44,962 nt of DNA from Deltaproteobacteria bacterium. GTDB taxonomy: Bacteria; Desulfobacterota; DSM-4660; Desulfatiglandales; HGW-15. The notes beneath the pieces are model-generated. The model saw only the letters and a list, made by a program, of their open reading frames with translations. It was not told the origin of the DNA and ran no database searches. The stretch lies in NCBI GenBank assembly GCA_016932115.1, contig JAFGDM010000061.1, forward strand, positions 1-44,962, in the 5' to 3' direction. This document shows positions 3,955 to 17,872 of the stretch, one piece after another. The position numbers were made by a program, and so were the translations under genes. How positions within the stretch are numbered: position 1 is the first letter of the stretch; each line of letters starts with the position of its first letter.

Positions 3955-4067
3955 AGGAAAAATGTGAGATGGTCAAAGCATTTTTAACCAATGAAACTTA
4001 CCGGGCTCAAAAACCCATGTACCATAAAGCGACACCCTAGAGAGGGGGTATGGGAGGAGAGATAACC

Positions 4068-7000
4068 ATGATACCTAACATTAAGGAAGGGATCGTGAAC
4101 AAGAATAGCAAACCGAGAAGATATGGAAGACTAGTCGCGTATCTTCTTTTTAGCGTGTTTCCTACATTTTTCTGCTTGGGTAAAGCTACATACGCTCATG
4201 CGTCTTATTCTGTTGTCGTTTCCTCTCCGGGTGCCGGATTTGGCGGCACAACAGATAAGGAGGGCGTCAATACAGTGGAAGAAGGAGGCTCGATCACAAT
4301 TGCCCCGACGGCCGACTCAGGTTACGTATTTTCGGGCTGGACAGGGGACATCTCTAATGGCGATAACCCATTGACCATTAGTCCGGTAACGCGAGACTAT
4401 ACTCTTAACGCAAATTTCCAGAAGATCAATTACACTCTGACAATATCTGTGGGCACCGGGAGCGGCTCTGTGGCCCCTTCATCAGGGACGACCTACGTGT
4501 ACGATCAGGGTCTTTCGGTGAACGCGACGCCTGCGGCAGGATGGAAGTTCGTGAACTGGACGGGGGACACAGAGAACCTGCTTGATCCCAACTCTCCCAG
4601 CACCTCCATGAAAAATCCGACCATGGCTGATACAACTATTAAGGCCAACTTCAGTCTTATCGAGTATACTCTTTCTGTCACATCTGCCGGGGGCACCGGT
4701 GGGGCTGCGGACAGGGTCAGCGTGGTTCCGAGTCAGGCGACCTATCACTACGGTGACACGGTGCAGCTCACGGCAAACCCTCAAACGGGTGAATCCTTCG
4801 GTTCGTGGAGCGGGGATCTCACGGGGAGCACCAACCCTAATTCCATAATTATCAACGGCAACAAGAGCGTCACTGCCAATTTCGCTTATATCGAATACGC
4901 CCTAGATGTTAAGATGATAGGAAGTGGAAACGGAGCAGTGACAAAGTCTCCCAACCAAACAACATACCATTACGGTGACATCGTTTCCCTCTCTGCCGTT
5001 GCGTCTGCCGATTCGGTTTTCATCGGGTTTGACGGAGACTTAAGCGGGATCACCCCGATTCAACTCACAATCGATTCAAACAAAAGTGTGAGTGCCTTAT
5101 TTCAAGCGCTGCGAACAGTGACGATCACCAATCCCGGCTCCGGTACAGGTACGATTAATGTTTCCGTCATTCCGTCCAACCTTACAGGCGGTTCCAAGAC
5201 TATTCCGGCAATTGGTGGTCTCATCATAAACGTGGCTGAAGGAGACAATGTTAGCCTGAGCGGCAGGACGGCTGCCGGGGGCTCGGTGTTTATCGCAGCA
5301 GGCAGTGACCTTGCAGATCCTGACAGTTTTGTTATTTCCAGCAGCAATGTGACCCGTACCGCCATCTTCCAGTTGACCAGAACCCTGGTTATCACCAATC
5401 CCGGCAGCGGCAGCGGCACAGTGGATGTGGCAGTGTCTCCCTCGGGGCTTTCAATAGGGGCGGGGCAGAGTGTGCCTGCAGGTGGAAGTATGTCCCTGAC
5501 GGTGGCCGATGGCGACACGGTGGATGTTACCAATCCTACTGGTGCGGGCGGATCCGTATTCGTCGCTGCGAGCAGCGGCGTGCCGGCAAAAATCGTGATC
5601 AGCGGTGATCCTGATTCAAGAGCCGCCGTTTTTGAATTGAGGCGCACCATCACTGTAACCAACCCCGGTTTGGGAAGCGGTACGGTTTCGGTCGATTCCT
5701 GCGACCCTTCCGGGCTTGAAGCAGGAAAGAGCTTGGCCATCGGGCCCGGGGGAAGCATTGTTTTCAATGTTGCCCAAAACGACACGGTTTCGCTCAGCGC
5801 AGCTCCGGCCGGTACGGATGATTATTTTGAAGGATTTAACGGTGACTTGATGGGAAGATCGCCTATTGCCCCCTCTATCGAGGTAGACGGGAATGAGAAC
5901 GTTACGGCGACCTTCAAGAAAGGGCTTGTCCTGACTATTGAGTGGGTAGGGATCGGTACCGGCACCGTTACAGCCGGCGACAAGGGTGGAATTTTGCCCT
6001 TATCGCCGTTTGATGGAGGTTCTTCTTCGGGCACTAAGGGCACTACGGTGTCTTATGTGTGCCTCGAAGGGGATGTTATTCACCTGGAGGCAACCGATTC
6101 CTATATTACCGACCCTCCTACATCAGGTTCACTATTTAAAAGCTGGGGTGGTGATGCCGGCGGTTCGGGCTACGGCATCGACATCACCATGAACGGGGAC
6201 AAGAGGGTTACAGTCGATTTCAACGCTACATATACTCTTGTTGTCGGCAAGGGTGGAACAGGAGCGGGCCGGGGCACTGTGAACCCCGAGCCGGGCACAT
6301 ATCTATATGAGGCCGGGGAGGAGATTTCTCTTTCCGCTGCCGACATAGACCCCACAGCGGACAGTACAGGGTGCGAATTCGAGAACTGGACCGTCAACGG
6401 TGTGTTCCATTCCGGAGAAAAGGTTACCTCCCTGAGCATCTCCGGAAACCTGTCCGTAATAGGAAATTTTATCGGCAAATACATGATCACATCCCTTGCC
6501 AGGGATGGAGGGAGCATCACTCCAAGCGGGGCTACAGTTAAGGTTTACGGCGAGAGCCAGAGCTACACCATCACTCCAAACACGGGTTACGTAATCTCAG
6601 ATGTGGTTATAGATGGTTTTTCTCAGGGCTCAATGGCCGGATACACATTCAACAATCTCAGCGCCAATCACAAAATCGTGGCCGTCTTCGTGCTGGAGAG
6701 CGACTACATAAACGATGTAAACGCCGGAGACGACCAGATCTACGCAACCAGTGTGCCGCCCCTTGTTCTGATGGTCATGGGCCGAAACCACAAACTATAC
6801 TACGAAGCGTACAACGATGCATCCGACTTGAATGGCGACGGCACACTGGACGTGGGGTACAACCCCACCATCGACTACTACGGGTATTTCGACTCCTACA
6901 AAGTCTACAAGTATGATACGGTGAACAATCGCTTCCATCCTTACAAATACACTAGCAACAAGAAGGTTGATCCGAATGCAACGGATGAGTGGAGCGGGGA

Positions 7001-10000
7001 TTTCCTCAACTATGTAACCATGTCCAGAATTGATGTGTTGAGAAAGGTGCTCTACGGCGGGTATCGTTCCGTGGACACGGCCGGTGAGACGGAGCTTATG
7101 AGGTCTTACATCCCGCAGGATGCCCACTCCTGGGGCAAGGAGTATGAAAGCATCGATCGCGATAAATATGACATCCGGGAGTACACTCCTTACGGTCTGC
7201 CGGTGAACGGCACAAGGCACCTTTTTGCCAATACCACGCTGCCGGTGGACCCCAATGTTAACGATCCCCAGCCGAATCTCAATCGTCCCATGCTGCGGGT
7301 GCTCAATGACAGCAAATATCGTATTTGGGAGTGGGTTTCAATTGAGCGGCCCGTTGCCGGAGACAAATGCGTCGACGGTACAATCGGGCCTAATTGCGCA
7401 ACTGAGGCCGTGGCCGCAGGATTACATCCCGGCCACCCGGCCAATGCTCTTGAATTCCAGGCTCTAGTGAATGAGTACGCGGTCCCGGAAAAACAAGATC
7501 CTACTAAGCCCGGGTATGGAACAACCAGCGCTTCGCTCATCGACGGGGAGGGGAATCCCTCAGGGGATAATTATGACCCTTATGACGCAGATGCAAGTGA
7601 TCAAAAAAATTATCTTACCGTATTCAGGGGTTATCTCGCGCCGACGACGGCGGGGAATTATTATTTTGCCGTGGACGGCGGAAATGCCGTGGAAGTCCTC
7701 ATAAACGGCGCTGTTGTGGCCGGCAAGTATGGGAGCAGCGGTAGGGCCGATGATCCGAAAATGCCTTATTCGAGCAGCAAAGTCCCCCTCTTCGCGGAAG
7801 CCAATACCGTGGAGTTCCGCCACGAAGTCGGCACCGGAGGCGGCAGCTACACCCTTTACTGGAAGGGGCCTGATTCCAAAAATTGGCAGGTGATCCCGGC
7901 AGAAAAGTTTACAGGCCTCGAACAATCCACCTATGAACTCCTCACTGAAGAGACGCCTGAGTCCATGATGACGGATTACGTCGTCAAGGTCTTGGTTTGC
8001 GATCCAAGCCTCCCTGAATCCAACAGCAAAAAGTATCCCTCGGGTGTCTCCAAACCCATTGGTCTCCTACAAAAATTCGGAGAGCCGGGGAAAATGTTCT
8101 TCGGCCTCCTGACAGGCACTTACGCAAACAATATTTCCGGCGGTGTTTTGCGGAAAAGAATGGGCACTGTGACGGATGAGATCGATACGAACACCGGAAG
8201 GTTCAGGTATAAATACGACGGCACCTACAGCAACGTTAATGGAGATATCATCAAAACGATTGATGGATTCCGGATAGCCGACTACTCGTACAAGTACTAT
8301 GCCTATGGGAATCCGGACACCGCCGCCTGGGCCACATCACGCAACGTGATGTCCGAGGGCGATTCCCCGGATTGGGGCAACCCCATTGCAGAGATGATGT
8401 ATGAGGGGCTCCGGTACTTTGCGGGCAAAAAGGCTCCTACGGGAGTATTCAATTACACTGAAGTATCGGGACCCGACACTCGGCTTGGACTTTCGAAGCC
8501 CGACTGGGACGATCCTTATGAGAGCAACCTGTGGTGCGCAAAACCTTTTATGCTGGTCCTTTCGGATATTAACCCCAATTTTGATTCGGACCAGTTGCCG
8601 GGTGCTGATGCCAATTTCATCGCTTCGAACTTCAGTGGAACGCTGGCATCATCCGATGCAACTCCCGAGAATCTAAATGTGGAGACGGTTGCAAATGACA
8701 TCACCGAGGCGGAAGGAGGACTTGACAGCCATTACATCGGCCAGGCAGGCGCGATTTTTGACAGCTCTTGCAGCCCCAAGGATTTGAGCGCCGATGGATT
8801 CGGCGCGATCCGTGGCCTGTGCCCTGAGGAGCCCACAAAACAGGGGAGTTATTACTCGGGGGCCGTGGCCTATTTCGGCCGGTTCCATGACATAAACCCT
8901 ATCATGGAAGAGCAGAGCGTGATCACCTACACGGTGGCCATGGCTTCGCCCCTTCCTCGAATCGAGATCCCTGTGGGCGGCAAAACCATCACCCTTGTTC
9001 CCTTTGGAAACTCTGTCCATGGTTGTCTTGGAGTCAACCCTACAGGAGGATATAACCCGGCGATCACGATTGTTGACTTCTACATCGAAGCCCTTTCCCC
9101 TACGAACGGAATTATAAGGATTAATTTCGCCGACATAGAACACGGCGGCTATCATGACCTGGACGCCATAGTTATTTATAGCTATCAGGTCTTGGACGCA
9201 CAGGGTGAACCGACAAACGTTCCGGATTCAGGTGAGTCCGTTCGCATCAGCCTACAGTCCGAATACGGTTCATCCTGCCTCACCATGCACGTAGGATACA
9301 TTATTTCCGGCACGACAGCGGACGGTACATATCTGGAGGTCAGGAGCATCAGCGTCCCGGATACGGAGGATATGGATTACTTCCTCGACACGCCCCCCGA
9401 TGGCTACACGCCCGGTTTGCCTCTCAGCACAACAAGGGTTTTCTATCCCGGAGAGACGGACGCAGCCACGCTGCTGAACGATCCTCTGTGGTATGCGGCC
9501 AAGTGGGGCGGGTTTACGGACTTGAACGACAACAAAATGCCCGACCTGGTAAGCGAATGGAGCCAGGACAGCGACGGTGTGCCGGACACCTATTTCTATG
9601 TGGTGAACCCTCTCAAGCTCGAACAGCAACTGACGAGGGCCTTTGTGGACATTTTGAGCCGGGGAGTCTCCCATGTGGCGCCGGCCGTCTCGGTCGACGA
9701 GCGTAACAGGATACAGAGCGGCGACAAGCTCTACATGGCCTTCTTCAAGCCGATCTCGGACAATTACTGGCGTGGAAACCTTAAAAAGTACGGGCTCGAG
9801 CTCCTTGAAAGATCCGATTGCGACCGGCCTGATAGGGAGTGGACGGTTGTGGATCAGGACGGCCTCATTGCAGGAGAATGCGATGGACTATTTAAGAGCA
9901 CCAGCCGTTCCTTCTGGTCGGAGGAAATGGACGGTGGGTATGTAGACCGGGGCGGCGCGGGAGGTAGGCTTCGGGATTCAATGCCGGGCTCCGACTCCGT

Positions 10001-11951
10001 ACAACCTCCCTCAACCGGCCCATACTGGGATTTCCGGAACATCTATACATATAAGGGATCCGAGGATGGATCCATGGTCCGGTTTATCCATGAAAATATT
10101 ACGAATGCCGATCTCGACCTGGAAGATGAGGATGATTATGCTCGCTACAGGATCATCAATTTCATGTACGGCTACACCTATGATTCCCGATCCGTAACGG
10201 AGCCTGAACCCAAGGAGAAAAGGCCATGGATTCTCGGGGACATCATTCACTGCGAGCCAAAGCTCCTTGACTACGTGAACCCCTCAACCGGATACCTGGA
10301 TTACCGCTATGTTGTTGTGGGCGCAAATGACGGGATGGTTCACGTGTTCGATGATGAAACGGGGGATGAAATCTTCGCCTTCATCCCCGGTGACCTTCTG
10401 CCGAGGCTTAAGGAGTTTGCCAGTCCAAGCCCTCATATCCATATGGTCGACGGGTCTATACAGATCGTGACCGTCAGGGATTCTGAAACAGGGAGCTACG
10501 AGAAAATCCTGATTTTCTGCGAAAGAAGAGGTGGAAGAAGTTACTGGGCTTTGGACGTCACGGATCCGAACCCTCTTAACTGGAGAGTGAAATGGTCCAT
10601 TAGGGGAGGCACCACCGGTTTCGAGGAATTGGGTCAAAGTTGGAGCAAGCCTTTTTTCACAAAAATAAGGACGGACTCGAGCAGCGTACGAAACGCCTTT
10701 GTCTTTGCCGGAGGCTATGACATTCAAGAAGACGAGTTTCCCGAGGCCTTCAGCGATTTCAATGAAAACGGCATTCGAGACAGTGAAGAACCCCACTCTG
10801 TAACCATCGGGGGGACTGAAGCGTACGACAAGTTCAATCCCGGCAAAAACGAATACGGCCGGGGAATATTCGTGGTGGATGCCGATACAGGCAGCCCCCT
10901 TTTCAAGGCAACTTTCGGTGAAGCAGAGGTGAAGACCGGGATTGACCAGAAGTTTACGGACATGAAGTTCTGTTTTCCTGCCGACATCTCTCTCATCCCT
11001 CTTTCGGACACCGAAATCCTGATGTATGCCGCGGATGTTTACGGCGAGATTTGGAAAGTAAAGTATAATTACTTTTCGGAAGACGAGGGAGTTAGTTATA
11101 GTGCATCCAGCTCTAAAAGATGGAAGGTGCAAAGGATTTTCAACTCGAACCCCGGCTCGATTGCGCCTACGGGAGATCCCGAAGCTTTCGCTTACGCAAG
11201 CCTGGATTCTGCTGACGCGGGCAGGAAGACATTCTATTCGCCCGACATCTCCCTGGGAGGAAACGACTGGACTGCAAAACCCGTTCTCTTTTTCGGCACC
11301 GGTGACCGGGAACACCCGAGATACGCGATGGTTTCGAACCGCTTCTATGTTGTGGCGGATACCGGCGAACTGATCGATGAGACAAACCTTCTCAATTTGA
11401 CCTGCAACGAGCTGGATGAGGATTCGGATGCAAATGGAGACGGCACAGTAAACTCCGTTGATTTGGATCTGAAATCAGACCTATCGGACCTTCTTTACGA
11501 CGGCTCTGCCTTTGGTTTCTACAGAGTGCTTGATAAGCAGGGGAATTGCATTGATGACACAGTCGATCACACGGGCGAACACATCCTGAGCCAACCGACG
11601 CTATTCTTCAAGAACGTTTATTTCACCAGTTATCAGCCCACGTTCGGCGACGAGTGCAATCCTCTTGGAAACGCCTTTATCTATGCCCTGGATTACTCCT
11701 TCGGCACATCCGCGCTCAACTACAACGTCGACAATGACACCACTGAGGTCCAGGTCAGAAACATCACGGATACTTATCGCATGATTGCCGGTACATCCAT
11801 TCCTTCAGGGGTTGAAATCGTCATCAGGGATGGTCAATACGCAGGTTTCGTAAGCGTCGGTGGCGCTCTTGTAGGAGTGGGGGAAGGCGGCTCCAGCAGC
11901 ATACCCGGACCCCCAAGCGGTGTGACGCCCCTTGTGTGGGCGACGGAGTAG
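4068..11951 (+). CDS. pilY1: Giant PilY1/PilC tip adhesin with N-terminal InlB-B-like beta repeats, a PA14-like insert and a C-terminal beta-propeller
   Basis: C-terminal PilC motifs (LGDIIH, VVVGANDGMVHVFD, GQSWSKP, FAGGYD, FFGTGDRE); KLYYEAYNDASDLNGDG; repeated GYVFSGWTGD/GWKFVNWTGD/FGSWSGD...VTANF units; signal peptide; SD GGAGGAG 8 nt before ATG 4068 (track start 4050). Confidence 0.9.
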   Translation: MIPNIKEGIVNKNSKPRRYGRLVAYLLFSVFPTFFCLGKATYAHASYSVVVSSPGAGFGGTTDKEGVNTVEEGGSITIAPTADSGYVFSGWTGDISNGDNPLTISPVTRDYTLNANFQKINYTLTISVGTGSGSVAPSSGTTYVYDQGLSVNATPAAGWKFVNWTGDTENLLDPNSPSTSMKNPTMADTTIKANFSLIEYTLSVTSAGGTGGAADRVSVVPSQATYHYGDTVQLTANPQTGESFGSWSGDLTGSTNPNSIIINGNKSVTANFAYIEYALDVKMIGSGNGAVTKSPNQTTYHYGDIVSLSAVASADSVFIGFDGDLSGITPIQLTIDSNKSVSALFQALRTVTITNPGSGTGTINVSVIPSNLTGGSKTIPAIGGLIINVAEGDNVSLSGRTAAGGSVFIAAGSDLADPDSFVISSSNVTRTAIFQLTRTLVITNPGSGSGTVDVAVSPSGLSIGAGQSVPAGGSMSLTVADGDTVDVTNPTGAGGSVFVAASSGVPAKIVISGDPDSRAAVFELRRTITVTNPGLGSGTVSVDSCDPSGLEAGKSLAIGPGGSIVFNVAQNDTVSLSAAPAGTDDYFEGFNGDLMGRSPIAPSIEVDGNENVTATFKKGLVLTIEWVGIGTGTVTAGDKGGILPLSPFDGGSSSGTKGTTVSYVCLEGDVIHLEATDSYITDPPTSGSLFKSWGGDAGGSGYGIDITMNGDKRVTVDFNATYTLVVGKGGTGAGRGTVNPEPGTYLYEAGEEISLSAADIDPTADSTGCEFENWTVNGVFHSGEKVTSLSISGNLSVIGNFIGKYMITSLARDGGSITPSGATVKVYGESQSYTITPNTGYVISDVVIDGFSQGSMAGYTFNNLSANHKIVAVFVLESDYINDVNAGDDQIYATSVPPLVLMVMGRNHKLYYEAYNDASDLNGDGTLDVGYNPTIDYYGYFDSYKVYKYDTVNNRFHPYKYTSNKKVDPNATDEWSGDFLNYVTMSRIDVLRKVLYGGYRSVDTAGETELMRSYIPQDAHSWGKEYESIDRDKYDIREYTPYGLPVNGTRHLFANTTLPVDPNVNDPQPNLNRPMLRVLNDSKYRIWEWVSIERPVAGDKCVDGTIGPNCATEAVAAGLHPGHPANALEFQALVNEYAVPEKQDPTKPGYGTTSASLIDGEGNPSGDNYDPYDADASDQKNYLTVFRGYLAPTTAGNYYFAVDGGNAVEVLINGAVVAGKYGSSGRADDPKMPYSSSKVPLFAEANTVEFRHEVGTGGGSYTLYWKGPDSKNWQVIPAEKFTGLEQSTYELLTEETPESMMTDYVVKVLVCDPSLPESNSKKYPSGVSKPIGLLQKFGEPGKMFFGLLTGTYANNISGGVLRKRMGTVTDEIDTNTGRFRYKYDGTYSNVNGDIIKTIDGFRIADYSYKYYAYGNPDTAAWATSRNVMSEGDSPDWGNPIAEMMYEGLRYFAGKKAPTGVFNYTEVSGPDTRLGLSKPDWDDPYESNLWCAKPFMLVLSDINPNFDSDQLPGADANFIASNFSGTLASSDATPENLNVETVANDITEAEGGLDSHYIGQAGAIFDSSCSPKDLSADGFGAIRGLCPEEPTKQGSYYSGAVAYFGRFHDINPIMEEQSVITYTVAMASPLPRIEIPVGGKTITLVPFGNSVHGCLGVNPTGGYNPAITIVDFYIEALSPTNGIIRINFADIEHGGYHDLDAIVIYSYQVLDAQGEPTNVPDSGESVRISLQSEYGSSCLTMHVGYIISGTTADGTYLEVRSISVPDTEDMDYFLDTPPDGYTPGLPLSTTRVFYPGETDAATLLNDPLWYAAKWGGFTDLNDNKMPDLVSEWSQDSDGVPDTYFYVVNPLKLEQQLTRAFVDILSRGVSHVAPAVSVDERNRIQSGDKLYMAFFKPISDNYWRGNLKKYGLELLERSDCDRPDREWTVVDQDGLIAGECDGLFKSTSRSFWSEEMDGGYVDRGGAGGRLRDSMPGSDSVQPPSTGPYWDFRNIYTYKGSEDGSMVRFIHENITNADLDLEDEDDYARYRIINFMYGYTYDSRSVTEPEPKEKRPWILGDIIHCEPKLLDYVNPSTGYLDYRYVVVGANDGMVHVFDDETGDEIFAFIPGDLLPRLKEFASPSPHIHMVDGSIQIVTVRDSETGSYEKILIFCERRGGRSYWALDVTDPNPLNWRVKWSIRGGTTGFEELGQSWSKPFFTKIRTDSSSVRNAFVFAGGYDIQEDEFPEAFSDFNENGIRDSEEPHSVTIGGTEAYDKFNPGKNEYGRGIFVVDADTGSPLFKATFGEAEVKTGIDQKFTDMKFCFPADISLIPLSDTEILMYAADVYGEIWKVKYNYFSEDEGVSYSASSSKRWKVQRIFNSNPGSIAPTGDPEAFAYASLDSADAGRKTFYSPDISLGGNDWTAKPVLFFGTGDREHPRYAMVSNRFYVVADTGELIDETNLLNLTCNELDEDSDANGDGTVNSVDLDLKSDLSDLLYDGSAFGFYRVLDKQGNCIDDTVDHTGEHILSQPTLFFKNVYFTSYQPTFGDECNPLGNAFIYALDYSFGTSALNYNVDNDTTEVQVRNITDTYRMIAGTSIPSGVEIVIRDGQYAGFVSVGGALVGVGEGGSSSIPGPPSGVTPLVWATE

Positions 11952-12059
11952 AAAAGGCACTATTCCCCATGAAATACGGGGAGATGTTCTAGTCTTAGTG
12001 CGGATAAAGTGACCGGCCGTCGGATCACAATGCGGTTCAACAAGCTTTAAGAGGATGAG

Positions 12060-12275
12060 ATGACGATTGAGGTTCGTGACAAGCGTTTCGGCGTTGTGGC
12101 GGTAGAGAAGGGATTCATTACCAAGGAGCAGCTTTTTGACGCCCTGAGAATACAGGTTGAGGAAAATCTGTCGGACAGGCCCCATCGCCTTATCGGCCAT
12201 ATACTCATAAGGCTGGGACACCTTAGCCATGAGCAGGCCGATGAAGTTCTCATCGCCATGCGAAAAAAAGATTAG
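12060..12275 (+). CDS. Stand-alone MshEN-like (putative c-di-GMP-binding) protein
   Basis: RFGVVAVEKGFITKEQLFDALRIQ and LIGHILIRLGHLSHEQADEVL fit the tandem RLGxxLLxxGLVxxxxLxxxLxxQ motif; SD AGAGGA. Confidence 0.75.
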   Translation: MTIEVRDKRFGVVAVEKGFITKEQLFDALRIQVEENLSDRPHRLIGHILIRLGHLSHEQADEVLIAMRKKD

Positions 12276-12370
12276 CCTTTGCGTTTTCGACCGGATTATA
12301 TAAGGATCATGATCCAGGTGCCGGCCATTCCCTAGATGGATCTCCAAGGGAAGACCCGGCTAATCGAACG

Positions 12371-13909
12371 ATGCGCAAGGGCAATATAATCGAACTTAAG
12401 ATCGACCGCATAGCCCAGGGCGGCCGTGGAGTGGGCCGTTCACAAGGGCTTGTCGTGTTTGTCGAAGGCGCCATTCCCGGTGATACCGTCAGGGCCCTGC
12501 TCAAGACAAAGAAAAAAGACTTTGCCGAAGCCGGGGTGGTGGAAATTATTCTGAGCTCTCCGGATCGGGTCCAAGCGGCCTGCCCCTACTTCGGCTACTG
12601 CGGCGGGTGCCGGTGGCAGCACGTGACTTATGAGCGCCAGCTTGAGTACAAGAAAAGCCTTGTAATGGAGGCCATGTGCCGAATCGGAGGACTTGACGAT
12701 ATTCTCATTCATGAGCCGATGGGGTCGGAAAGGATTTATGGGTATCGCAACAAAATGGAGTTTTCCTTTTCAGACAAGCCGTGGGTGATAGACCGACCCT
12801 CTTCCCTCCTTTCTCCTGCCATATCCCCGTCTCCCGCCCCTCCATCCGGAGGGAAAGGACCTATTCCCTCCCCCTTGGAAAAAAAGAATGGAGAAAGATT
12901 TGCCGAGGGGGGCAGGGGCGATTCTCTAAGAGCGTTGGTTTTGGGACTTCATGTGCCTGGGACATTCAACAAAGTCATAGATGTGGAATCCTGCCTGCTC
13001 CAGGAGGAGCGAGGGAATGAAATCCTGCGGGCGGTCAAGCGCTTTGCCTGGGAATCCGGCCTTGCGCCTTACAATCTCAAAACCCACGGGGGATTCTGGC
13101 GCTTCCTTACTCTCCGCAGTTCCAGGTTTCTTAAGGAATGGATGGTCAACGTGATCACATCTGAATACCGAAAAGACCTTGCCGAAAATCTGGGCCGCCA
13201 TATCACCTCAACATTCCCTGATGTCAAAACGGTGGTGAACAATGTGACTGCCCGACGGGCAGGTGTTGCCGTGGGCGAATGGGAGTCCGTCGTCTCGGGG
13301 CCTGGATTTATCGAAGACCGTATCGGAGCCTATGCATTCCAAATCTCTGCGAACTCCTTTTTCCAGACCAACACAGCGGGTGCAGAAAAGCTCTACCTCA
13401 AGGTGGCGGAGTTTGCTGAACTGACGGGCTCGGAAAACGTGGTGGACCTTTATAGCGGAACAGGGACAATCTCTATTTTTCTGGCCTCCAGGAGCAAGCG
13501 AGTCATAGGGATGGAAATCAGTGGAACCGCTTTGGAAGATGCAGAAAAGAATTGCAGAACCAATAGGATAGAAAAGTGCCGGTTCATCCTCGGGGATATT
13601 CGCGCAGCCCTCCCATCCCTCTCCTTCAAGCCCGATGTTCTCATCATTGACCCGCCTAGGGCCGGAATGCACAAGGATGTAACAGCCAAAATTCTGGAGC
13701 TTGGCACGGAGAAAATAATCTACATTTCTTGTAATCCGGTTACAATGGCAAGAGATCTAGGTGAAATGAAGGATTATTACGAGGTGGTGGAAATCCAGCC
13801 TATAGACATGTTCCCCCACACCCACCATGTGGAGTCCGTAGCGAAATTGAGAAAAAGAAAAATGGTCCGGGCAGTACGGCCCCACGGCACACCCGAAGAT
13901 TTTTGTTGA
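12371..13909 (+). CDS. rlmD: 23S rRNA (uracil-1939-C5)-methyltransferase RlmD
   Basis: TRAM domain, CPYFGYCGGC Fe-S motif, YRNKMEF, SFFQTN, DLYSGTG, IDPPRAG, YISCNP, DMFPHTHHVE. Confidence 0.95.
   Translation: MRKGNIIELKIDRIAQGGRGVGRSQGLVVFVEGAIPGDTVRALLKTKKKDFAEAGVVEIILSSPDRVQAACPYFGYCGGCRWQHVTYERQLEYKKSLVMEAMCRIGGLDDILIHEPMGSERIYGYRNKMEFSFSDKPWVIDRPSSLLSPAISPSPAPPSGGKGPIPSPLEKKNGERFAEGGRGDSLRALVLGLHVPGTFNKVIDVESCLLQEERGNEILRAVKRFAWESGLAPYNLKTHGGFWRFLTLRSSRFLKEWMVNVITSEYRKDLAENLGRHITSTFPDVKTVVNNVTARRAGVAVGEWESVVSGPGFIEDRIGAYAFQISANSFFQTNTAGAEKLYLKVAEFAELTGSENVVDLYSGTGTISIFLASRSKRVIGMEISGTALEDAEKNCRTNRIEKCRFILGDIRAALPSLSFKPDVLIIDPPRAGMHKDVTAKILELGTEKIIYISCNPVTMARDLGEMKDYYEVVEIQPIDMFPHTHHVESVAKLRKRKMVRAVRPHGTPEDFC
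12797..12924. repeat. Palindromic C-rich/G-rich element inserted in frame in rlmD
   Basis: CCCTCC-ATCC-GGAGGG (12838-12853); CCCCCTTGG (12870-12878) pairs with CCGAGGGGG (12903-12911); encodes a Pro/Ser/Gly-rich loop. Confidence 0.55.
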
Positions 13910-13935
13910 CACACCCTGCAAATTACGTGTATAAG
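13906..13935 (+). promoter_or_regulatory. sigma70 promoter upstream of the rpsU leader
   Basis: TTGACA (13906-13911), 18 nt spacer, TATAAG (13930-13935). Confidence 0.65.
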
Positions 13936-14012
13936 CCATCCTTTCGAAATGACTCCGCCGAAAACACGGGCTTGATCGTCGTGAAACGGGGGTTAAAAGG
14001 GGGGTGATTTAA

Positions 14013-14126
14013 ATTAGAATTTCATGCACCTTTTCCGTTAAGCCTATGATCAGGGACAACGGATGCTCCCTTGCCTTCGATATGTCGGCGTCCTACACCA
14101 ATGCCGCGAGGAGACTGGACGTGTAA
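14013..14126 (+). CDS. Putative 37 aa leader peptide with ATT start codon (MRISCTFSVKPMIRDNGCSLAFDMSASYTNAARRLDV)
   Basis: Extended SD AAGGGGGGTGAT (13997-14008) at optimal spacing before ATT; frame open to TAA 14124-14126; absent from the ORF track. Confidence 0.55.
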   Translation: MRISCTFSVKPMIRDNGCSLAFDMSASYTNAARRLDV

Positions 14127-14157
14127 CTCCAGCCCAAAACTCTGGTATGAGGCCGGG

Positions 14158-14196
14158 AAAAGCATCCCTCTAAAGTTTGGGGTGCTTTTTTATTTT
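14158..14196 (+). terminator. Intrinsic terminator/attenuator upstream of rpsU
   Basis: AAAAGCATCCC (14158-14168) pairs with GGGGTGCTTTT (14179-14189), followed by TTATTTT. Confidence 0.75.
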
Positions 14197-14234
14197 AATG
14201 CTGGATGGAACCTTTAGAAGAAAGAGAAGAAACT

Positions 14235-14423
14235 ATGAAAGTTGTTGTTCAGGATAATCAAATAGAGAAAGCCATCAGGGATCTCAAAAAAAAACTGACT
14301 AAGGAGGGGTTTTTCTCCGAGATCAAGGACCGTCGTTTTTACGATAAGCCAAGTGTTCAAAAAAAGAAAAAAGCGGCCAAGGCGGCGAAAAGGCGGCGAA
14401 AGAGGATGAGAAAGTTCAACTGA
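14235..14423 (+). CDS. rpsU: 30S ribosomal protein bS21
   Basis: MKVVVQDNQIEKAIRDLKKKLTKEGFFSEIKDRRFYDKPSVQKKKK with the typical RxFYxKPS motif and basic C-terminus. Confidence 0.92.
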   Translation: MKVVVQDNQIEKAIRDLKKKLTKEGFFSEIKDRRFYDKPSVQKKKKAAKAAKRRRKRMRKFN

Positions 14424-14452
14424 TTATTCAAACCCTTGAGTGGGCTTTTTCC

Positions 14453-14481
14453 TTGACAAGAAAGGGATAAGAAGGTAAAAA
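14453..14481 (+). promoter_or_regulatory. Possible sigma70 promoter of the qrc operon
   Basis: TTGACA (14453-14458), 17 nt spacer, TAAAAA (weak -10). Confidence 0.4.
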
Positions 14482-14656
14482 GCCACCGTCTGTGCTTCAA
14501 GTATCTTTCCCAATGCAGGCCTTTGGTGCGATCCTATCAAATCTGCCCTGTCGGGTTCCATAGGGAATCCGATTTTACCTCAGAGGCCTCGCCATAGGTC
14601 GGCAGGATGGAACTTCGCCGCGGGTACAAGAATTTATTTGAGTAAGGATCTGCCCC

Positions 14657-15382
14657 ATGGAAAACCAAGCGCATTCCTCGCAAAAGCCCCTCAAAAAGGG
14701 ATGGTTTATATCCCTCATCGACGTCGTGCTTTCTTACTATTCTTATCTGATTTCCCAGCCTTTCCGGAGCGGCCTGGTTTATTTTCTTGCCGGATTGATT
14801 CCTTCGCTGGCATTGGGGTGGCTTATTTTTCCGGCGCTTCTTTATTCCAAACAGCCCCAGCCCCTGCAATTCAACCATGCGATTCACACCCATCCCCAAA
14901 TCGGCATTGAGGGGAAAACAGAGGAGGAACGTTGCTTACAGTGCCACGGTTTCCGGGAAGACGGCACCTTTACGGGCATACCCAATCTTGCAACCTGCAT
15001 GAAGTGCCACGATGATCCGGAATCAACCCTGGGAGAGACGCCCGAGGAAGAGAAATTCAACGAGGAGTATGTGGCTCTCGGAAAAGAGGTGCCATGGCTC
15101 CTTTATCACCGGCAACCGGATTGTGTCTACTTTTCCCACATTGCCCATGTGAAAATGGGTAAGCAGGAATGCAGGACTTGCCATGGCGATCATGGACGGA
15201 GCGAAAAGCTTCCCCTACACCAGAGAAACCGCATCAGCACCTATAGCAGGAACATATGGGGTTATAATATTGCCGGGTATGTTCGTAACCCTTGGGAACG
15301 CATGAAGATGGACAACTGTGCCGATTGCCACACCAAGACAGGCCATGAGGAAAATAATGCATGCTTTGTTTGTCATAAGTGA
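14657..15382 (+). CDS. qrcA: Menaquinone reductase multiheme cytochrome c subunit QrcA
   Basis: N-terminal TM anchor, QPLQFNHAIH, five CxxCH motifs (CLQCH, CMKCH, CRTCH, CADCH, CFVCH), RQPDCVYFSH and a C-terminal ACFVCHK. Confidence 0.9.
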   Translation: MENQAHSSQKPLKKGWFISLIDVVLSYYSYLISQPFRSGLVYFLAGLIPSLALGWLIFPALLYSKQPQPLQFNHAIHTHPQIGIEGKTEEERCLQCHGFREDGTFTGIPNLATCMKCHDDPESTLGETPEEEKFNEEYVALGKEVPWLLYHRQPDCVYFSHIAHVKMGKQECRTCHGDHGRSEKLPLHQRNRISTYSRNIWGYNIAGYVRNPWERMKMDNCADCHTKTGHEENNACFVCHK

Positions 15383-15511
15383 AAGAGCGCGCAATGAGGT
15401 ACCGTACGTCTTCAATACTTTCCAAAACAGAAATGTAGGAACTCTGACCTGGAAGAGGGCGTGATTCGAGGATTGCCGGTCAGCCTCAAGGGAGCCGAGA
15501 GGTATAGACAT

Positions 15512-17872
15512 ATGGATTTCAGCGTAAAAAAACTGACGGATCTGGTGGCTTTCAACAGGAGGAATTTCATTAAACTGCTCATCGGCGGAGCGGTGGGCAT
15601 CAATGCGACACCCCTTCCATGGAAGCTGATGGACGACGTGGCCATATGGACACAGAACTGGCCGTGGGTGCCTGTGCCCGCCCGGGGCGCTTTTAATCAC
15701 TCAGAAACTATTTGCACCCTTTGTCCCGGTGGTTGCGGCATTACTGTGAGAAAGGTCGATGGAAGACCTGTGAAAATCGAAGGCCGCGCGGACTATCCGG
15801 TCAACCCCGGAGGCATTTGCCCCCTTGGATCGGGGGGTCTCCAGTTGCTTTACACGGAATCGCTGCGCTTCACCGGACCGATGAAAAGAGTAGGTGCTCG
15901 AGGCACAGGCGATTTTGTGGCCATTTCATGGGACGAGGCCATGCAAACCCTTGCCGATCGCCTCGCCGAGCTAAAGAGAAACGGGAAAAGCGAAGCCCTG
16001 GCCGCCATAGACGGAAACAGGCCGCACTCATCCATGTCCCTTCTAATCCGGAAATTTATGGACGCCATGGGCAGCTCGATGTATGCCAGGATGCCTTCCC
16101 TCGAAGATACCTATGCCACGGTCAACCGTCTCATGTTCGGGATCGATGCACCCATGGCCTACGACCTGGAACATGCGGATCTCATCCTGAGCTTTGGATG
16201 TGGTCTCATCGAAGGCTGGGGGGCGCCGGGCCGCATGTCCAACGCTTGGTCACTCTGGCGAAGCGAGCCTTTGAAAGGAAAGGTCAAGATCATCCAGGTA
16301 GAATCCAGGGCCTCCAACACGGCCTCCAAGGCAGACCAATGGATTGCGGCAAAACCTGGAACAGAGGCGGCTCTTGCTCTGGGTATCGCCCATGTCATGC
16401 TCAAGGACGGCCTTTATGATTCAAACTTTGTCGCGAATCACACCTTCGGCTTTACAGATTGGACTTCGCCGGACGGGAAAAGCCACAGGGGCTTTAAGAA
16501 CATCGCACTCCGAGATTATTCACCGGATGTGGTTTCAAAAACAACCGGTGTCGATGCCGGCCAGATCCTTTCCCTGGCCAGGGCTTTCGCCCGGGCCAGG
16601 GCGCCCATAGCCCTTTGCGGTAAGGGGAAAGGAAGTTTAAACGGAAGCGTTTTTGAATGTCTTGCGGTCCAGAGTCTGAATGCCCTGACAGGGAACATCA
16701 ACAAGCCGGGCGGAGTGCTTGTTCATCAAGATGTCCCCTTGCAGGCCCGTTACTCCGCCGAGGCAAAAGGCCCAGGCGAGCCACTTACGGCCGCCGGGCT
16801 CGGCGAAGCTCTCACGGCCGACAAAATCTCTGTAGAAACGCTTCTTCTTTTTGCCGCCAACCCGGCTCATACCCTGCCGGATGGGGGTGGTTTTAGGAAA
16901 GCTCTCAAAAAGATTCCCTTGATTATAAGTTTTAGCCCCTTCAGAGACGAATCTTCTCTGATGGCCGACCTTATTCTTCCAGATCACACCTATCTCGAAA
17001 AAATGGATGACGTCGTCTGGCCCGTGGGCCTCCAGTACCCTTTTTATGGGCTCACCCAGCCGGTGCTAAAACCCCTTTATGATACTCGTGCCACGGGCGA
17101 TGTGCTTATTCAATTGGCCGAAATCATGGGCGGAAGGGTTACAGAATCTTTGCCCTGGAAGAATTATGAAGAGCTCCTCAAGGAGAGGGCCCTAAACCTG
17201 TTCGAAGCGGAAGGAGGGCTGACCAGTCATGATTCCTCCAGACCCGCGTGGGAACCCTCGGCTTACCGGAAAGTGCTGAAAAGTGACTGCACGTCACCGG
17301 AAGAACTCTGGAAGAAGCTCAAGGCCGGCGGGTTCTGGTACCGTCCGTTCCAACGTTTTGGTTGGCATGAGGAACTTTTCAAGACGGCTTCCGGGAAGTT
17401 CGAATTCTGCACCGACAAACTTGAAAAAGCGGGAGCGGATTTGGCTAAAACTCTCGAAAATGATCGAGACTACCCTGTTGTCATGGCACCCTATGAACTC
17501 ATCAACTTGGCCAGCAGTTGGGCGCCGAGTCCACCCTACCTGTATAAAACCCTTTTCGATTCCCAGATAAGGGGAAAAGACTGTTTTGCAGAAATTAATC
17601 CTCAGACTGCCGGGGAATACAAATTAAAGCAAGGAGATTACGTGATCATCGAGTCGTCTGCGGGAAAGGTGAAAGCTCTTGTCAATATTTTTGCAGGTGC
17701 CATGCCGGGGGTTGTTTATCTAGCTTTCGGGTTCGGGCACACTGGTTACTCAGACTTTCACCTGAACAAGGGTGTAAACCCCAACAGCATTGTGGCAGGC
17801 CCCAGGGATTTCCTGACCGGCATGTCCGCCTGGTGGCGCACACCTGTACGGTTGTCCAAGACAAAGGCGTAG
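15512..17872 (+). CDS. qrcB: Menaquinone reductase molybdopterin-oxidoreductase-like subunit QrcB
   Basis: Tat signal RRNFIK, TPLPWKLMDDVAIWTQNWPW, CTLCPGGC...C cluster, ADLILPDHTYLE; start probably ATG 15512 (track GTG 15461). Confidence 0.9.
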   Translation: MDFSVKKLTDLVAFNRRNFIKLLIGGAVGINATPLPWKLMDDVAIWTQNWPWVPVPARGAFNHSETICTLCPGGCGITVRKVDGRPVKIEGRADYPVNPGGICPLGSGGLQLLYTESLRFTGPMKRVGARGTGDFVAISWDEAMQTLADRLAELKRNGKSEALAAIDGNRPHSSMSLLIRKFMDAMGSSMYARMPSLEDTYATVNRLMFGIDAPMAYDLEHADLILSFGCGLIEGWGAPGRMSNAWSLWRSEPLKGKVKIIQVESRASNTASKADQWIAAKPGTEAALALGIAHVMLKDGLYDSNFVANHTFGFTDWTSPDGKSHRGFKNIALRDYSPDVVSKTTGVDAGQILSLARAFARARAPIALCGKGKGSLNGSVFECLAVQSLNALTGNINKPGGVLVHQDVPLQARYSAEAKGPGEPLTAAGLGEALTADKISVETLLLFAANPAHTLPDGGGFRKALKKIPLIISFSPFRDESSLMADLILPDHTYLEKMDDVVWPVGLQYPFYGLTQPVLKPLYDTRATGDVLIQLAEIMGGRVTESLPWKNYEELLKERALNLFEAEGGLTSHDSSRPAWEPSAYRKVLKSDCTSPEELWKKLKAGGFWYRPFQRFGWHEELFKTASGKFEFCTDKLEKAGADLAKTLENDRDYPVVMAPYELINLASSWAPSPPYLYKTLFDSQIRGKDCFAEINPQTAGEYKLKQGDYVIIESSAGKVKALVNIFAGAMPGVVYLAFGFGHTGYSDFHLNKGVNPNSIVAGPRDFLTGMSAWWRTPVRLSKTKA

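Follow-up and report, generated by a model that had tools for sequence, protein, structure and literature searches.

The rpsU gene, which encodes ribosomal protein bS21 (S21), is preceded in one class of Desulfobacterota by a conserved leader of about 250 bases that comprises a strong Shine-Dalgarno (SD) sequence, a short open reading frame (ORF), and a switchable transcription stop; it probably tunes S21 production to translation-start capacity. The stretch of DNA examined here (the window) is 44,962 nucleotides (nt) long and comes from a Deltaproteobacteria bacterium assigned to Desulfatiglandales, HGW-15 (GenBank assembly GCA_016932115.1, contig JAFGDM010000061.1, positions 1 to 44,962 of the forward strand). 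Comparison with related leaders supports a conserved anatomy, an open ORF, alternative antiterminator and terminator structures, and dependence of rpsU on read-through. With moderate confidence, the leader can be read from its sequence as a transcription attenuator governed by leader translation, in which ribosomes on the leader would block the antiterminator.

Plain DNA similarity detects little of this. Among 41 relatives, the leader aligned only in the sister species (G002), and elsewhere only rpsU aligned; the family therefore had to be traced through motifs and a covariance model. Comparison of the 450 nt upstream of rpsU in 20 loci nevertheless revealed, in nearly every one, a shared set of boxes with their order preserved. 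A further 80 loci, from metagenome-assembled genomes (MAGs) named Desulfatiglandales, Desulfatiglans, 'Desulfobacteraceae', or HGW-15, brought the total to 100. The motif GG[AG]GGTG[AG] lies 200-650 nt upstream of rpsU in 77 of these, representing 66 distinct leaders. Model R1, a covariance model of the leader 3' half, matched 80 of 151 genomes drawn from the order and 92 of 151 drawn from the class, nearly always at a single site per genome. In the order draw, matches were distributed by family as follows: f1, 27/53; f3, 47/54; f5, 3/5; f6, 1/1; f4, 1/34; and f2, 0/3. The rpsU gene is directly downstream of the match in 13 of the 14 in-class loci examined, and the fourteenth is cut by a contig end. 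Recurrence upstream of rpsU in 77 of 100 loci, together with the single copy per genome, indicates that the arrangement is more than chance.

A phylum-wide draw of 151 genomes gave six weak matches outside the class (E from 3.2e-5 to 0.009). These were treated as terminator-like noise because none has rpsU in the locus. On these searches the leader family appears confined to one Desulfobacterota class (Desulfatiglandales-type MAGs), with none found outside. In the window, R1 matches positions 14055-14197 (67.4 bits), the single strong site in its genome. Searching the whole window with Rfam 15, which includes the described ribosomal protein leaders, gave no match at gathering scores, so that no Rfam family accounts for the region; such a match was among the outcomes that would have refuted the preliminary description. 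With E values up to 10 allowed across 13700-14700, the best was a generic terminator-like match to ctRNA_p42d, at 17.5 bits against a gathering score of 50 bits.

The family leader contains, in order: a promoter; the first SD box, SD1 (AAGGGGGTGAT), near-invariant across the 66 distinct leaders; a start codon 4-9 nt further on; in long forms only, the P1 hairpin (RCCGGAAG...CTTCCGGY), which begins right after the start codon; an anti-SD-like box (GCCCCTT or ATCACCCCTT), able to form helix P0 with SD1; box2 (consensus GAGTGCTTCCnnACCTTCA), most often 85 nt after the start; a second SD, SD2 (GAGGTG), with a start 4-10 nt on and then 0-6 codons; the stop codon of the leader ORF (ORF1); region 3 (consensus TTGAAGGnnnGGAAAAGCATCTC); and the terminator, whose 3' arm has the consensus GAGGTGCTTTTTT. 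The rpsU ATG follows a median of 56 nt further. Model R1 spans box2 to the terminator. Leaders were aligned as A1, A2, and A4, and the alignment fitted to R1 was kept separate. Members of the window's genus have a shortened leader without P1, in which SD1 is held in a local hairpin with the ATT start codon in its loop. More compact leaders in families f2 and f5 still keep SD1, the ORF, box2, SD2 with a start-stop, and the terminator. The terminator 3' arm is kept as GAGGTGCTTTT even where a U-G pair with the 5' arm results (at one pair, UG in 20, UA in 16, and CG in 9 leaders). As a separate observation, SD1, SD2, and the terminator 3' arm all resemble an SD, and the terminator 5' arm resembles an anti-SD.

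Attenuation is supported by mutually exclusive antiterminator and terminator structures, with one antiterminator strand within reach of a translating ribosome. Examined leader by leader, region 3 finds its best upstream partner in box2, whose position hardly varies. Moreover, box2 and region 3 pair better with their own partners than with partners swapped between leaders (-19.8 versus -15.8 kcal/mol; none of 2000 permutations was as good). The same is true of the terminator (-17.7 versus -16.5 kcal/mol; 0/2000) and of P1 (-8.5 versus -5.8 kcal/mol; 0/2000). Negative controls and all pairings that involve SD1 or SD2 gave no cognate advantage. Pairing of SD2 with box2, the anti-SD box, or region 3 was rejected on these grounds, and for SD1 the swaps with box2, region 3, or the anti-SD box were negative, or uninformative as SD1 is invariant.

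Counts of paired positions in a fixed register agree, though they are moderate. Box2 and region 3 are 71.3% paired in the MAFFT alignment, versus 39-54% when the strands are slid. In the model-fitted alignment, which leans to structure and whose 61 matches include three reverse-strand matches to the terminator only, the corresponding values are 77.2% versus 42-54%, with covariation of 0.183 versus 0.150 (0/500 shuffles). P0 and P1 together are 68.3% paired versus 36-58% slid (covariation 0.260 versus 0.219; 3/500 shuffles). P0 by itself is 76.5% paired in relatives, without covariation because SD1 is invariant.

The order in which these structures emerge also matters. Minimum-energy folds of ribosome-free nascent RNA, extended to the end of region 3, contain at least eight antiterminator pairs in 40 of 45 leaders (median 15), whereas in full-length folds the terminator wins in 39 of 45. 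This suggests that an untranslated leader would default to read-through by kinetic trapping. A consensus fold of 45 leaders (RNAalifold) recovers the terminator helix and also proposes a G-U-rich helix between SD1 and box2. In the window, segment 14056-14172 folds into the antiterminator, and the terminator folds at -17.8 kcal/mol (z = -2.64 relative to shuffled sequences). The preliminary description had proposed an attenuator in which translation of an ATT-led leader ORF reports on initiation factor 3 (IF3) and bS21 status. Its attenuator core is supported by comparison, since box2, the covarying partner that competes for the terminator 5' arm, lies inside an open leader ORF; its ATT/IF3 component, as a general feature, is not.

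The frame of the leader ORF is kept open far more often than chance predicts. When the start may lie 3-10 nt beyond the SD, the ORF reaches 25, 35, and 40 codons or more in 60, 53, and 48 of the 66 leaders (median 44.5 codons). Means from 200 dinucleotide shuffles are 18.2, 11.7, and 9.6 (maximum 20 for the 40-codon class); displaced scanning intervals give 3-14, and the reverse complement gives 9. Start codons were assigned by rule: a canonical start was chosen if its ORF reached at least 25 codons, and the longest ORF otherwise. The 60 starts obtained by this rule are ATG (21), TTG (18), GTG (5), ATA (8), ATT (4), ATC (2), and ACG (2). The aligned start column of A1, with letters in 41 rows, reads ATG (13), TTG (9), GTG (4), ATA (8), CTG (2), ACG (1), ATT (1), and three non-starts. 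Of the two features whose lack of conservation the preliminary description would have counted as refuting, the open frame is conserved and the ATT is not: 44 of 60 leaders use ATG, TTG, or GTG, and only 16 use ATA, ATT, ATC, or ACG. Judged by these alignments, the family tolerates several near-cognate starts, of which the window's ATT is an example rather than a defining trait.

By contrast with the frame, the peptide appears to be of little consequence. Pooled over eight close pairs of equal length, the ratio of nonsynonymous to synonymous polymorphism (pN/pS) is 0.84; 17 pairs were tried, and nine were dropped for unequal length. Box2 is read in phase 1, 0, or 2 in 31, 8, and 2 of 41 leaders, respectively. 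A Pfam search with five leader peptides returned no families. These three results make the alternative raised at the outset, an unannotated small protein, unlikely. Nor do homopolymer runs, C-termini, or the pN/pS value point to regulatory codons or an arrest peptide: the longest homopolymer run is at most two residues in 51 of 60 peptides, and there is no conserved C-terminus. Since the frame is kept open while the peptide is near-neutral, the ORF would seem to matter for being translated, not for its product. Box2 lies inside the ORF in all 41 scorable leaders, and the ORF1 stop always comes after box2, by a median of 53 nt, and precedes the region 3 centre by a median of 46 nt.

SD1 is an extreme initiation signal in a genome that uses SDs normally. 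The 16S rRNA tail was taken from five relatives, in which it is canonical (GGAUCACCUCCUUUCU), as the 16S 3' end of the window's own genome is unassembled. SD1 forms 12 pairs, one of them G-U, with this tail (GAUCACCUCCUUUCU), at -18.6 kcal/mol, a value that equals the strongest among 1477 crude gene starts of the genome. Family medians are -18.9 kcal/mol for SD1 versus -8.8 for the rpsU initiation region. The SD of rpsU, described earlier as weak, is indeed weaker than SD1, though only moderately weak (-6.5 kcal/mol in the window). SD1 is 226 nt upstream of the rpsU ATG and serves ORF1. SD-like 5-mers precede 33% of crude gene starts versus 10% of internal controls, and many genes carry SDs of the GGAGGTGA type.

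Downstream of box2 there is a second putative site for ribosomes. Of 60 leaders, 46 have in the spacer from box2 to region 3 an SD with a start 4-10 nt on, at most six codons, and a stop, versus 3.0 +/- 1.6 in shuffles (maximum 8); these sites include 12 pure start-stops and 16 with one codon.

Promoter-like sites are concentrated ahead of the leader. In a scan of 59 leaders with a pattern requiring at least five of six and at least four of six matches, such sites lie within 160 nt upstream of SD1 in 39 leaders and inside the leader in two. The preliminary description recognised that a promoter of rpsU's own downstream of the terminator would undo the proposal; the same scan found none in 58 of 59 relatives, with one positive. 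Because of this absence, rpsU is expected to depend on read-through. Two metatranscriptome runs, from a study that may be the source of the assembly, yielded nothing on this stretch, which counts neither for nor against expression.

These features suggest the following model. Transcription would begin at the leader's own promoter, and the nascent RNA would expose SD1 ahead of an ORF of 25-52 codons. With no ribosome on the leader, box2 would pair with region 3 as it emerges, using up the terminator 5' arm; the resulting antiterminator would allow RNA polymerase to read through into rpsU. Ribosomes that load at SD1 and occupy the ORF would instead cover box2, so that the terminator can fold and end transcription 40 nt short of rpsU. 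SD2 and its start-stop may hold terminating ribosomes, with followers queuing over box2. The presumed sign of the switch is that translation leads to termination.

What is sensed would presumably be how many 30S subunits can use an SD, a number that in Escherichia coli depends on bS21. According to section 2.10 of a review (PMC10931766), E. coli bS21 provides for pairing of the 16S 3' end with the SD. By analogy, bS21 is expected to promote pairing between SD and anti-SD (ASD) in this SD-using lineage as well. If loading at a structured SD1, sometimes with a near-cognate start, depends strongly on SD-ASD pairing and hence on bS21, then the circuit would exert negative feedback on bS21. The leader might in this way report bS21-dependent SD recognition, or bS21 status. 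We offer only tentatively the fuller version of this idea, a co-transcriptional gauge that converts the density of bS21-loaded 30S subunits into a probability of termination before rpsU, by means of an extreme SD, a sequence-indifferent frame, and a start-stop parking site. Such a gauge, if true, would keep ribosome composition in homeostasis by acting on transcription; its mechanism would differ from that of the translational bS21 circuit in Bacteroidota, and its sign would be the reverse.

Several observations weigh against this model. One concerns timing: because the ORF runs about 53 nt past box2, a single ribosome coupled to RNA polymerase is already off box2 when region 3 emerges, and the model needs a lag, dense loading, or queueing. 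The SD1:box2 helix proposed by RNAalifold could reverse the logic of the switch, and, when the 5' part of the window leader is included, SD1 competes for box2 (CUCCCUU) or region 3 and the folds are ambiguous. The sequences compared are related to one another and show moderate covariation, and 23-29% of cells stay unpaired in a fixed register. There are exceptions within the family: 6 of 66 leaders are without a 25-codon ORF, 14 of 60 are without the SD2 mini-ORF, some GC-rich relatives are without a U-tract terminator, and the f4 family is without the whole leader 3' domain. The SD of rpsU has a 5-mer core in 17 of 60 leaders and so is not consistently weak. Finally, the dependence of SD use on bS21 rests on E. 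coli, not on this lineage.

A different account of the leader, which we think unlikely, holds that free bS21 or another factor binds the RNA directly, for example at a P0 helix that imitates the SD-ASD duplex adjacent to bS21 on the 30S subunit, and so shifts the balance between antiterminator and terminator; translation of the ORF would then be secondary, serving for example as protection from Rho. Mimicry of rRNA is the rule for ribosomal protein leaders, and in many leaders here a copy-like anti-SD box (ATCACCCCTT or GCCCCTT) is placed to pair with SD1, consistent with the high paired fraction of P0 given above (76.5%). Moreover, one clade member whose SD1 is GGAGG has CCTCC where its relatives have CCCCC. 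A precedent comes from the Bacillus subtilis rplJL leader, described in PMC4538822 as combining an anti-antiterminator, antiterminator, and terminator with a leader peptide. However, P0 does not overlap box2. A stabilised P0 would block leader translation and, to judge by the folds, favour read-through, so that, barring further elements, the feedback would have the wrong sign. P0 is also without testable covariation (392/2000 permutations), and P1 and a separate anti-SD box are absent from the window's genus and from the compact f2 and f5 forms, which nevertheless keep SD1, ORF, box2, SD2, and terminator. Direct binding also leaves the open ORF unexplained.

The same parts might be wired with the opposite sign or to another signal, a reading to which we give rather little credence: a ribosome at SD1 or SD2 would promote read-through, whether by releasing box2 from SD1, by keeping Rho from loading, or through close coupling to RNA polymerase. 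The result would be positive coupling of rpsU transcription to translation capacity, or to IF3 in leaders with a near-cognate start. The SD1:box2 helix in the RNAalifold consensus points in this direction, as do minimum-energy folds of the window in which SD1 pairs with box2 or region 3, the expected position of a tightly coupled lead ribosome, at the stop or SD2 rather than on box2, and the near-cognate starts in 16 of 60 leaders. In B. subtilis, translation of the rplJL leader peptide raises expression (PMC4538822). Yet the SD1:box2 helix is half G-U, shows no covariation (570/2000), and is weaker than pairing of SD1 with the anti-SD box (-7.1 versus -10.3 kcal/mol). Moreover, ribosome-free nascent RNA forms the antiterminator in 40 of 45 leaders, so ribosomes would not be needed for read-through; and positive coupling alone gives no bS21 homeostasis. 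It is very improbable, finally, that the element is a gene in its own right, encoding a small RNA or a small protein, that merely happens to lie beside rpsU. Such a gene would account for the promoter, the efficient-looking terminator, the conserved ORF length, and the distance of 360-370 nt to rpsU in a few relatives. Against it stand the linkage to rpsU in every in-class locus with enough flanking sequence, the single copy per genome, the 58 of 59 relatives that have no promoter-like site of rpsU's own, the short median gap (56 nt), the near-neutral peptide (pN/pS of 0.84), and a covarying antiterminator that would be purposeless in a stand-alone gene.

Returning to attenuation by leader translation, its parts in the window are listed below. 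The promoter, the extended SD, the ATT-led frame, the terminator, and rpsU had all been named from the sequence beforehand, and each was found in its place. The claimed 5' hairpin at about 13951-13994 fared otherwise: it folds no better than shuffled sequence (z = 0.00), the distance from promoter to SD varies from 58 to 155 nt among relatives, and the position of a 5' hairpin is not conserved.

Features of the rpsU leader in the window, positions counted from its first nucleotide
Feature	Coordinates	Strand	Description and basis
Sigma-70-type promoter	13906..13935	+	TTGACA 13906-13911, 18-nt spacer, TATAAG 13930-13935; read from sequence
SD1, extended Shine-Dalgarno box	13996..14009	+	AAAAGGGGGGTGAT; sequence; near-invariant in family alignments A1 and A4
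SD1-sequestering local hairpin	13995..14036	+	AAAAGG:CCUUUU and GUGA:UCAU, ATT in loop; short form of helix P0
Leader ORF1	14013..14126	+	ATT start, 37 codons, TAA stop 14124-26; peptide ends SYTNAARRLDV
Box2, antiterminator 5' strand	14061..14078	+	GGATGCTCCCTTGCCTTC; inside ORF1; pairs with 14149-14167 in fold of 14056-14172
SD2 and start-stop	14108..14126	+	GAGGAG 14108-13, 7 nt, GTG-TAA 14121-26; stop codon common to ORF1
Region 3, antiterminator 3' strand	14149..14168	+	Overlaps terminator 5' arm; fold and family covariation
Intrinsic terminator	14156..14196	+	13-bp stem 14156-68/14179-91, 10-nt loop, U-tract UUUUUUAUUUU
rpsU (ribosomal protein bS21, 62 aa)	14235..14423	+	Pfam Ribosomal_S21, PF01165, E = 1.4e-15

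The -35 box of the promoter overlaps the TGA stop codon (13907-09) of the upstream gene, which encodes a TRAM/U5-methyltransferase (RNA methyltransferase) according to Pfam. An in-frame TAA (14010-12) directly precedes the ATT of ORF1; the alternative start, an in-frame ATG at 14046, is without an SD. The hairpin that holds SD1 is weak alone (-9.3 kcal/mol, z = -0.88). The terminator 3' arm in the window, GGGGTGCTTTT, is SD-like. A consensus scanner missed both the promoter, because its -10 box is without the final T, and the terminator, because its 10-nt loop exceeds the scanner limit of 8.

Other genes near the leader were noted in passing. Downstream of rpsU on the same strand are a gene for a multihaem cytochrome c7/c3-like protein (14657-15382, Pfam) and then an 803-codon ORF (15461-17872), for both of which a TTGACA at about 14452 may be the promoter; these two genes appear unrelated to the rpsU unit. 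Upstream, a single ORF of 2633 codons (4050-11951, plus strand) contains numerous repeats that look Ig-like, together with an extended C-terminal region; no other ORF listed over 11500-17500 comes near it in size.

Variants among the relatives also deserve mention. Four loci (L007, L071, L096, and L091) have 200-370 nt inserted between the leader terminator and rpsU, and some of these inserts carry repeated GAACC/GGTTC-type motifs and a short ORF. The sister family f4 (loci L026-L057, for example L056 and L042, and L123-L126; genomes G027, G032, G036, and G039) has neither the ORF nor the terminator. Its consensus promoter is retained, as is an extended but orphan SD (GG[AG]GGTGA) located 24-68 nt upstream of the rpsU ATG, too distant to serve rpsU and with no consistent start codon after it. 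A hairpin, GCTAAG...CTTAGC, usually lies between the orphan SD and rpsU. The f4 arrangement may exert the same kind of SD-based control on translation. One f5 locus (L128, genome G033) has no leader: about 90 nt separate its promoter from an ordinary SD, AAAGGGTGAGACTATG, that sits directly at rpsU.

The protein bS21 joins the 30S subunit late, exchanges readily, and is often sub-stoichiometric, contributing to ribosome heterogeneity; to our knowledge, control of its level has been known only for Bacteroidota. Literature searches on rpsU and bS21 autoregulation, ribosomal protein leaders, leader-peptide attenuation, and rpsU in Desulfatiglans, supplements not included, turned up no description of the leader; the main text of a paper on ribosomal protein leaders (PMC7247131) mentions neither S21 nor rpsU. 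The family is now defined well enough, through alignments A1-A4 and model R1, for curation. As a compact natural device, the leader would have transcription termination set by its own translation instead of by amino-acid supply, and its extreme SD, tolerated near-cognate starts, and conserved start-stop are unusual parts.

Leader-peptide attenuators of the trp, his, and pyrBI type have a promoter-proximal short ORF and mutually exclusive antiterminator and terminator hairpins, and ribosome position decides termination. The rpsU leader, as known from its sequence, likewise has a short promoter-proximal ORF and exclusive hairpins, with one strand in or next to the ORF. Unlike those attenuators, it is without regulatory codons or codon runs, its ORF continues about 53 nt beyond the antiterminator strand, its SD is extreme, near-cognate starts are tolerated, and there is a second SD with a start-stop. 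As the regulated gene encodes a ribosomal protein, initiation capacity, not tRNA charging, is the probable signal. The infC gene, which encodes IF3, autoregulates through an AUU start. ORF1 in the window similarly starts with ATT, and 16 of 60 relatives have a near-cognate start; here, however, such a start is not conserved (44 of 60 are canonical) and the controlled gene is rpsU.

Ribosomal protein leaders of Bacillus that act by transcription attenuation, L20 on infC (PMC1865079) and L10(L12)4 on rplJL (PMC4538822), are switched by a ribosomal protein that binds an rRNA-like site directly. The rpsU leader resembles these leaders in its size (about 200 nt) and in its competing antiterminator and terminator upstream of a ribosomal protein gene; the rplJL leader has a translated leader peptide, to which the predicted translation of ORF1 would correspond. 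The rpsU leader differs in that no protein site is evident and in that a conserved ORF overlaps the antiterminator strand. As for rRNA mimicry, many members can form the SD:anti-SD-like helix P0, to which bS21 might bind.

A further parallel is in Bacteroidota, where papers on Flavobacterium johnsoniae (PMC9976891, PMC13000453) describe rpsU as autoregulated through an extended SD at its own start, by ribosomes that otherwise ignore SDs. Both systems would control rpsU with an unusually long SD complementary to the 16S 3' tail, and in both the presumed sensor is the ribosome with or without bS21. In Bacteroidota, however, rpsU itself is initiated at the long SD, and regulation acts on translation; the long SD of the present leader belongs to a separate ORF, and transcription termination is the predicted output. 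In the window the extended SD lies 226 nt from the rpsU start, where pairing reaches only -6.5 kcal/mol, and the host's genes are not generally devoid of SDs (33% versus 10% SD-like 5-mers). Because the host uses SDs normally, the 'blind ribosome' logic is inapplicable and the expected effect of bS21 has the opposite sign. If the model is true, control of rpsU by the ribosome's ability to read an SD would have evolved more than once, and in this second phylum by a different route.

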